Below the pieces are notes generated by a model that worked only from the letters and a program-made list of their open reading frames with translations, made no database searches and had not been told where the DNA came from. Position numbers and translations under genes: made by a program. A stretch of 64,000 bases of DNA from Escherichia phage ManiMatter_Bas94: the sequence record PQ850617.1, one strand, 5' to 3'. Numbering within the stretch: position 1 is the first letter of the stretch; each line of letters begins with the position of its first letter. Shown here in pieces: positions 29,936 to 30,846 of this stretch.

Positions 29936-30205
29936 TCATTCTCCTAATAACTTACGAATTTCACTACGGAAGTTATCGTACTCTTCAGGGTATTCAAACC
30001 CACACTCAAGAAGAGCATAGTGAACAACCTTCAGCAAATCCTGAACCTTATTCTTATCTTTGTGTCGATAAGCATATTTGATCATGTTGGTTTGTTGAAA
30101 GTTCAACTGAGGGTTTGCATGATAAAACTCGATAGGTTGAATCTTCTTGCTATCAGGGTTATAGTGGGAACCTCCCACCATAGAAACTAATGCTGGATTA
30201 TTCAT
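29936..30205 (-). CDS. Hypothetical protein
   Basis: 89-aa ORF in operon. Confidence 0.4.
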
Positions 30206-30846
30206 GCGATCATTCCTTGAAATTCTTCTTTATCAAAATGTTTTTCTACCACATATTCATACAGGTCTTTTAACTCTGCATAACGACGATAGAAAGTTCC
30301 GTGTGACATGCCAATAGTTTTCTGAATGTGGTCATGAGGAATACCCAAGAAAATCATTGAGAACATATTAGCTAACTTCTGAGTATCCATCGTATCACTT
30401 AAATCTTGGAAGAAGTAAAAGATACGGGACTCCATGAATGGGTCACCAACAGAATCTTGCTTATCCATAGCAATCTCTAGAGGACTGTCCACCATATCAG
30501 GAGTACGGAACATATCAGCCTCTGGAATGGAGTATATACGACGATCCCCCACAGTCTGCCTATTTGAACGTATAGACCAGATAATATTCTTGACTCGATA
30601 AGTCATATGCTCTTGGTCTTTCTCATCCTCTAGGATTCTCTCATCCTGCCTAGCGAAGACAAATCTCCAAGCGTTCAAGAGCACTTCTTGTGCCACATCT
30701 TCTGCTTCGTGATAATCCCTGATATCATACATGAAGAACTTGTGAACTACTTTCCAATTCACTTTATAAAACTCTTCATAATTTGAGATGTACTTAATAG
30801 GGATTCCATGAATGCGATATCTTGTAGGTGTTGTCTTCTTCGCCAT
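30202..30846 (-). CDS. Phage-encoded sigma factor (sigma-70 family, region 2 and 4)
   Basis: 214 aa; region 2-like [18 protein letters not shown] and region 4-like [32 protein letters not shown]. Confidence 0.7.

Follow-up and report, generated by a model that had tools for sequence, protein, structure and literature searches.

A phiEco32-type sigma factor, its promoters and an unreported promoter-like site in Escherichia phage ManiMatter_Bas94

The sigma factor gene and its genome setting

The DNA studied here, called the window below, is a stretch of 64,000 nucleotides from Escherichia phage ManiMatter_Bas94 (Bas94; sequence record PQ850617.1), and by its sequence it belongs to a phiEco32-like (Kuravirus-type) coliphage. 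The 6-kb stretch around the sigma factor gene is 99.1% identical to Escherichia phage JacquesWildberger_Bas92 and 93-98% identical to ~70 other phiEco32-like coliphages (Kuravirus, Suseptimavirus); many relatives in GenBank label the orthologous gene “RNA polymerase sigma factor.” Position 1 of the window, where the large terminase gene begins, aligns with phiEco32 position 2240. Compared with phiEco32, the genome is smaller (Bas92 type, ~68 kb versus 77.5 kb) and lacks genes 35 and 37 and most of gene 34 beside the sigma gene, and its DNA polymerase gene, which lies in the window, is interrupted by a group I intron. The features discussed below are collected in Table 1.

The initial annotation of this DNA, made from the sequence alone, had placed a phage sigma factor of 214 aa at 30202-30846. 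The ORF is there and begins with ATG, on the minus strand (no strand had been given), and its product matches known phage sigma factor sequences: it is 98.1% identical to phi32_36 across 214 aa, it matches PHROG 1740 (“RNA polymerase sigma factor,” E=1.6e-45), and its sole match among all PDB sequences is chain F of 9M7Y (“RNA polymerase ECF sigma factor,” E=1.8e-144, residues 1-213), of which it is an orthologue. The structure 9M7Y is phiEco32 gp36 on E. coli RNA polymerase, captured by cryo-EM as an open complex with the P68 promoter (PMC12276001).

The same annotation had credited the protein with signatures of sigma-70 regions 2 and 4, which stood for region 2 only below threshold and failed for region 4. 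Pfam Sigma70_r2 aligned with residues 31-62 only and reached 18.4 bits where the gathering score is 24, and the Pfam region-4 models gave no match to the 214-aa protein at E<=10; NCBIfam TIGR02937 scored 23.2 bits against a cutoff of 42.9, in an alignment spanning residues 23-192. This agrees with the 2022 paper of the phiEco32 transcription group, which states that gp36 is without region-4 homology (PMC8948821). The 2025 structure showed that the C-terminal domain has a sigma-4-like fold despite its sequence, and placed the sigma-2-like and sigma-4-like folds of gp36 on the clamp helices and the flap-tip helix (PMC12276001). The protein gp36 is a highly diverged two-domain sigma factor, and it is made as a middle protein. 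Bacterial group 4 (ECF) sigma-70 factors share the two-domain sigma-2 plus sigma-4 plan and a length of ~200 aa, a likeness echoed by the weak TIGR02937 alignment; they differ in that the curated profiles (TIGR02937, Pfam Sigma70_r2 and r4) all remain below threshold on the Bas94 protein, and in that gp36 reads its -10 element, AATGTA, partly as duplex and makes minimal -35 contact (PMC12276001).

All 20 of the residues named in PMC12276001 as contacting RNA polymerase or promoter are identical in the Bas94 protein. They comprise the acidic residues facing the clamp helices (D44, E47, E49, D50, E54), those at the -10 element (E79, H80, Y83, R84, W90, S91, S94, N95), those at the flap-tip helix (M138, I142, F166, L167, F204), and the pair at positions -34 and -37 (Y186, R187). 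With 98% identity to gp36, the protein would be expected to bind host core RNA polymerase and to direct transcription.

Table 1. Features in the window (positions on the 64,000-nt stretch; transcription starts and driven genes are predictions)
Feature	Coordinates	Strand	Elements or product	Predicted +1	Gene predicted to be driven	Basis
Late promoter, P13 equivalent	6835..6866	+	TAATGTATA 6858-6866; TAAGACCTA 6835-6843 (-38 to -30)	near 6873	6900-7652 (SU10 adaptor protein family)	69/70 bases identical to phiEco32
Late promoter, P26 equivalent	23718..23749	+	TAATGTATA 23741-23749; TAAGACCTA 23718-23726	near 23756	23787-28094 (1435 aa)	synteny with phiEco32
Phage sigma factor gene, phiEco32 gp36 orthologue	30202..30846	-	214 aa			ATG ORF; PDB and PHROG matches
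Middle promoter, P40 equivalent	32205..32236	-	TAATGTATA 32205-32213	near 32198	31399-32145 (gene 40 homologue)	68/70 bases identical to phiEco32
Unreported promoter-like site	32253..32285	+	TTGGTAGTAGATAT 32253-32266; TAATGTATA 32277-32285	32292		same elements and spacing as P68
Candidate structured non-coding element (RNA or part of replication origin)	32292..32450	+				conservation, fold
Middle promoter, P58 equivalent	37716..37747	-	TAATGTATA 37716-37724	near 37709	37362-37679 (gp58 homologue, 105 aa)	66/70 bases identical to phiEco32
Middle promoter, P68 equivalent	42210..42242	-	AAATGTATA 42210-42218; -35-region TTGGTAGTAGATAT 42229-42242	near 42203	41844-42170	published as aAATGTATA
gp79 homologue	48128..48376	-	82 aa			100% identical to phi32_79

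Five sites equivalent to mapped phiEco32 promoters

In published accounts of phiEco32, as far as consulted, gp36 replaces sigma-70 on the host RNA polymerase, and the resulting holoenzyme recognises six promoters that share the consensus tAATGTAtA, starting 6-8 nt downstream of it (PMC8948821; PMC4331800; PMC4281155; PMC12276001). Three late genes (6, 13 and 26) and three middle genes (40, 58 and 68) each have one of these promoters upstream; the supplementary table of PMC8948821 lists P68 as aAATGTATA and P6 as TAATGTAgA.

Exact copies of the corresponding 9-mer, TAATGTATA, occur in the window at 6858(+), 23741(+), 32205(-), 32277(+) and 37716(-). The initial annotation had listed four of these, all of which are present, and had missed the copy at 32277(+); its further variant on the minus strand at 42209 is real, as AAATGTATA, and is one base off, the correct range being 42210-42218. 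It had also named the motif as a phiEco32-type consensus, correctly, as comparison with tAATGTAtA confirms. Counting from the last motif base up to the A of the start codon gives 34, 38, 60, 37 and 40 nt for the sites at 6858, 23741, 32205, 37716 and 42210, within the 34-60 nt upstream of start codons that had been claimed. At each of these five sites the motif sits in a non-coding gap upstream of a gene and on the same strand as that gene. The genes behind them are 91-99.6% identical to phi32_13, 26, 40, 58 and 68, and their 70-nt promoter regions share 59-69 of 70 bases with phiEco32. The motif does serve both strands, as had been proposed, with the P13 and P26 equivalents on the plus strand and the P40, P58 and P68 equivalents on the minus strand. 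The sixth phiEco32 promoter, P6, is at phiEco32 position 1677, ~560 bp to the left of the window start, and so falls beyond the stretch studied here. Within the set, the P40 equivalent shows no variation among 12 relatives.

Could these copies be chance occurrences, or AT-rich sequences resembling sigma-70 -10 elements, with the ORF encoding some other DNA-binding or regulatory protein? One-mismatch 9-mers are no commoner than chance (18 found versus 19.4 expected), the sigma-70 profile matches lie below curated thresholds, and a generic sigma-70 scan gives a weak 9/12 match that overlaps the 32277 site. However, the exact motif is found five times against 0.71 expected under a dinucleotide-preserving null, a sevenfold excess, and none of 100 shuffles reached five or more. 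The six sites (five exact copies plus AAATGTATA) all fall in non-coding sequence, which by a crude ORF map makes up 7.6% of the window (P ~2e-7), sites are syntenic with experimentally mapped promoters, and the protein is 98% identical to a sigma factor whose structure has been solved on RNA polymerase and promoter DNA. We therefore regard this explanation as extremely improbable. Since the one-mismatch class as a whole is not enriched, the signal consists of the exact motif and the single variant AAATGTATA.

A second pattern lies upstream of the motif. In all six window sites position -38 is T, -37 is a purine and -34 is A, as is also the case for P6 of phiEco32. In the phiEco32 structure, R187 recognises the -37 base through N7 while Y186 touches the T that faces -34A, and it is -37G and -34A of P68 that these two residues read (PMC12276001); the pattern in the window fits these contacts.

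Several further motif-like sequences were considered and set aside. The other one-mismatch variants were rejected as promoters on the lack of enrichment of their class and the location of most of them in coding sequence. The non-coding TAATATATA at 12569(+) lies 12 nt before the ATG of the holin gene and is without -38T, and the variants at 32195(+) and 32286(+) show no conservation among relatives. Both late sites share TAAGACCTA at -38 to -30, possibly an element of the late class; no -10 motif follows the two other copies of TAAGACCTA, at 35813 and 36683. A terminator-like hairpin (6803-6826) lies immediately upstream of the P13 equivalent. The gene at 37362-37679 had been called KGG-like, and this we could not uphold: at E<=1 Pfam gave nothing for it beyond one irrelevant sub-threshold match, and none to the KGG repeat model, and its product is 94% identical to phiEco32 gp58.

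The gp36/gp79 switch as it would operate in Bas94

In phiEco32 the small protein gp79 displaces region 4 of sigma-70 and stabilises the gp36 C-terminal domain, and P26, which the gp36 holoenzyme transcribes in vitro, is activated 4-fold by it (PMC12276001). Taking this system as a guide, the Bas94 gp36 orthologue would bind E. coli core RNA polymerase, as was shown in phiEco32 and is expected here by orthology. Its N-terminal sigma-2-like domain would sit on the clamp helices, read AATGTA at -14 to -9 and melt the DNA from -11, and its C-terminal sigma-4-like domain would sit on the flap-tip helix and touch the -37 and -34 bases. The gp79 homologue would evict host sigma-70 region 4 and brace the C-terminal domain; host and early phage transcription would be turned off, and gp36 promoters would rise 3-4 fold. 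From the five homology-mapped promoters, with starts ~7 nt downstream of the motif, the holoenzyme would transcribe late virion genes on the plus strand (P13 at 6858 and P26 at 23741) and middle genes for replication and metabolism on the minus strand (P40 at 32205, P58 at 37716 and P68 at 42210).

What we obtained for Bas94 is sequence, orthology, contact residues, motif statistics and synteny; polymerase binding, start sites and the action of gp79 come from the phiEco32 literature, and the primer extension and in vitro transcription data at gp36 promoters are from phiEco32 only (PMC8948821; PMC4331800). Transcription starts, timing and RNA polymerase binding in Bas94 would thus be expected to follow those of phiEco32. 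The initial proposal that the motifs are promoters read by host RNA polymerase under the redirection of the phage sigma factor is supported by the synteny of the sites with mapped phiEco32 promoters and the 98% identity of the protein to gp36. We are nearly certain that the sigma gene and the five sites constitute the phiEco32 gp36/gp79 system in a close relative. Two qualifications concern its use. The authors of the SU10 study suggested that sigma-70, too, may read some of the middle promoters, so that dependence on gp36 may not be exclusive; and P40/gene 40 is separated from the sigma gene by a terminator-like hairpin at 31360-31377(-), which bears on how the sigma gene itself is transcribed.

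Comparison with other systems helps to define what is particular to this one. Bas94 agrees with phiEco32 not only in its proteins (sigma factor 98% identical with the same contact residues, gp79 100% identical; PMC8948821, PMC12276001) but also in having a late promoter cluster on one strand and a middle cluster on the other, with P13, P26, P40, P58 and P68 syntenic. Salmonella phage 7-11 likewise has a phiEco32-like genome layout and a phage sigma factor, gp47, that drives late genes; however, gp47 has recognisable region-4 homology and uses bipartite promoters, GTAAtg-(16)-aCTA, and the phage is without a gp79 homologue, a middle gene class and TAATGTATA sites (PMC8948821). The analogy drawn by the authors of PMC12276001 is with T4 AsiA/MotA, where a small phage protein likewise disables sigma-70 region 4 and a second protein supplies promoter specificity, in the passage from early to middle transcription; T4 remodels a retained sigma-70, whereas the gp36 system replaces it.

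A seventh promoter-like site without a gene

The copy of TAATGTATA at 32277(+) stands back to back with the P40 equivalent and points away from gene 40, within a gene-free gap of 421 bp (32146-32566). It points into the antisense side of minus-strand genes, before which there is no plus-strand ORF of at least 35 aa downstream of the site, and the first 160 nt downstream contain no ATG or GTG. Its phiEco32 counterpart is at 36704(+). The published promoter lists that we consulted (the SU10 authors' list, PMC4331800 and the supplementary table of PMC8948821) do not contain an equivalent; the bioinformatic promoter search in PMC4331800 was confined to the strand that carries the downstream gene.

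The resemblance of this site to a gp36 promoter extends beyond the 9-mer. The 14-mer TTGGTAGTAGATAT occurs at just two places in the window, here and at P68, at an equal distance upstream of the motif, so that the -10 and -35-region elements and their spacing are those of P68, and the site carries GGTA at -37 to -34, again as in P68. Twelve aligned phages, drawn from two genera, keep both elements while the 11-12 nt spacer between them varies in sequence at constant length, one sequence having a single substitution in the -35 element. The phage ES17 has an insertion of ~120 bp between the site and P40, and both are intact. Adding viral and metagenome contigs raised the number of distinct copies to 17, of which 16 keep AATGTATA; the exception, a metagenome copy, has G-11A.

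A conserved, candidate structured element facing the site

The predicted start of transcription coincides with the first base of a conserved element, 32292-32450, which consists of a 5' hairpin at +1, a middle module and an invariant 3' hairpin of ~65 nt. It contains no ORF, ATG or GTG from 32292 to ~32450. We found the element in all 98 of the Kuravirus-like GenBank records examined, at 92-100% identity and never annotated. In relatives whose sigma factor and gene 40 coding sequences are 76-82% identical, the 3' part of the element reaches 94-98%, and its middle module comes in two unrelated versions between identical flanks.

One reading of these observations is that the site at 32277(+) is a real seventh gp36 promoter and makes a stable structured non-coding RNA of ~155-185 nt, whose function lies in its own sequence rather than in antisense pairing to a particular gene. 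In addition to the two-element match with P68, retained over a variable spacer in both genera and in ES17, this reading draws on the 5' hairpin, which occupies the first 19 nt and starts exactly at the predicted +1. Two of its pairs show compensatory changes (UA/GC at one and CG/UA/AU at the other), and there is also GC/GU alternation; the covariation score is 0.056 versus 0.029 in shuffles, with none of 500 shuffles as high. The strand preference of the proposed structure also favours an RNA read from the plus strand, on which 61 G.U cells make it 98.3% canonical, as against 87.9% on the minus strand. The high identity of the 3' part relative to neighbouring coding sequence points the same way. 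Genes further downstream differ between phages and the element does not, which argues against a gene-specific antisense role.

Other observations weigh against an RNA. The 3' hairpin is not followed by a plus-strand U-tract terminator, and the fold z-score of the plus strand is just -2.1. The helices other than the 5' hairpin never vary and so carry no covariation information on the structure, either way. G-11A in the one metagenome copy falls in the -10 element. Searches of Rfam gave no family at E<=1 for 32100-32700 and, at the gathering threshold, a marginal tRNA match only for the whole window. Elsewhere in the window the candidate RNA had no antisense complementarity of 12 nt or more, none above chance and no paralogue, and 5,426 E. 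coli genomes contained no homologue. A literature search for Kuravirus transcriptome or transcription-start data found none. On balance we consider a non-coding RNA plausible, with doubt somewhat outweighing confidence.

The same hairpin can be viewed from the other strand. There, a long hairpin is followed by TTTTTAT, and the conserved structure could be a minus-strand terminator or processing site that shields the P40-gene 40 unit against middle transcripts arriving from upstream; conservation of the plus-strand motif would then have a cause other than promoter function. With the strong terminator at 31360-31377(-) at the far end, a self-contained unit of P40, gene 40 and terminator is plausible. 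However, terminators rarely keep invariant loops and ~100 nt of flank across genera, the A/U-rich stem contains A.C mismatches when read on the minus strand, where the fold also fails to improve on shuffles (z=-1.1), and the SU10 authors' listing has no terminator at the locus. A terminator would also leave unexplained both the two-element promoter footprint and the covarying hairpin at +1. We judge this reading quite unlikely.

A promoter that has no gene to serve could instead belong to a replication origin. At the T7 primary origin, phage-polymerase promoters fire into an AT-rich region. The comparison concerns only the region 32253-32566, which resembles this arrangement: a putative phage-specific promoter without a gene and an AT-rich stretch (32451-32566) are found among replication genes, in the part of the window with the lowest G+C content (36.8%, 32001-34000). 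Transcription from 32277(+) into the structured element and the AT-rich stretch would then open or prime the origin. An AT-rich spacer of variable sequence follows the element in every relative, and the invariant part contains the direct repeat TAGGGAC-TCC-TAGGGAC. Bas94 differs from T7 in having a conserved structured element of ~160 nt between promoter and AT-rich stretch. Against an origin, the G.U pairs on the plus strand and the compensatory changes in the 5' hairpin indicate constraint at the RNA level, although a primer RNA would show the same. The turning point of the cumulative GC skew is away from this locus, at ~28 kb, together with the flip in gene orientation, and there is no separate origin signal; in the published work examined, no origin has been mapped for any phiEco32-like phage. 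An origin of this type thus seems unlikely, if somewhat less so than a minus-strand terminator.

Taking RNA and origin together, the broader proposal is that 32277(+) is a seventh gp36 promoter which either drives a structured non-coding RNA of ~160 nt (32292-~32450) or primes or activates a replication origin. The conservation of the element exceeds that of the sigma factor gene. We put this proposal forward tentatively, as one that comes close to an even call.

Significance

The gp36/gp79 switch and its promoters are already known and are rediscovered here in a close relative. Genetic, biochemical and structural studies of phiEco32 have already described the switch, and the worth of the sigma factor and promoter finding is that this window can be annotated with confidence. 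The site at 32277(+) and the element that it faces are the only part that lies outside the literature consulted on this system. If the proposal made for them is true, a non-coding RNA or a replication origin would be added to a model phage whose promoter set seemed complete, and the gp36/gp79 switch would gain a target other than a protein-coding operon.

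Promoter elements

The two late promoters of the window (equivalents of P13 and P26, promoters read by the phiEco32 phage sigma factor gp36) have in common the sequence TAAGACCTA, which lies at exactly -38 to -30 from the predicted transcription start in both cases (6835-6843 (+) and 23718-23726 (+)); at the same positions the middle promoters carry other sequences. Two more copies occur at 35813 and 36683, and neither is followed downstream by the -10 motif of gp36. At the late promoters, TAAGACCTA could be a class-specific upstream element.

A seventh, exact copy of the gp36 promoter motif was found within 32253-32450 (+), and is not among the published promoter lists. 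It is identical to the middle promoter P68 in the -35-region element and points at a candidate structured non-coding element of ~160 nt, with no gene downstream. This non-coding element is more conserved than its flanking genes, in 98 of 98 related phages.

At another middle promoter, P58, the transcript is predicted to start with CUCCUUA...UAAGGAG (37680-37716 (-)), a potential hairpin in which the Shine-Dalgarno sequence of the gp58 homologue would be base-paired.

Surroundings of the sigma gene

Strong terminator-like hairpins were located at two sites (see table). Together with the one that follows it, the gene-40 homologue and its promoter P40 look like a self-contained unit, with the sigma gene lying downstream of it; a sigma-70-like match, ATGAGA-17-TATAAT, is present at 31106-31078 (-).

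Beside the sigma gene (29936-30205 (-); 30846-31400), the phage is without phiEco32 genes 35 and 37, which encode a GTP-binding domain and a macro domain (Appr-1-p processing), respectively. Where phiEco32 has gene 34 (dNMP kinase, 297 aa), there is only an 89-aa ORF.

Coordinates of hairpins and of features of the DNA polymerase gene
Feature	Position	Strand	Remark
Strong terminator-like hairpin	31360-31377	-	Directly after gene-40 homologue
Strong terminator-like hairpin	6803-6826	+	Directly before P13-equivalent promoter
Family-A DNA polymerase gene	34046-36596		Split by insertion
Insertion, 704 bp	34538-35241	-	Relative to Bas92
Endonuclease VII-family ORF, 170 aa	34624-35136		Inside insertion; E=1.2e-23

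Candidate tRNA and polymerase insertion

Rfam gave a marginal tRNA at 59422-59500 (-), which at 33.4 bits exceeds the gathering score of 29, and ARAGORN reported zero tRNAs over the whole window. The tRNA-Arg annotated among the early genes of phiEco32 may be the counterpart of this candidate.

Compared with the close relative Bas92, the family-A DNA polymerase is interrupted between residues 450 and 452. With the full group I intron model of Rfam, the insertion scores 43.3 bits (E=1.5e-9), below the gathering score of 50. Its probable identity is a mobile group I intron that carries a homing endonuclease.
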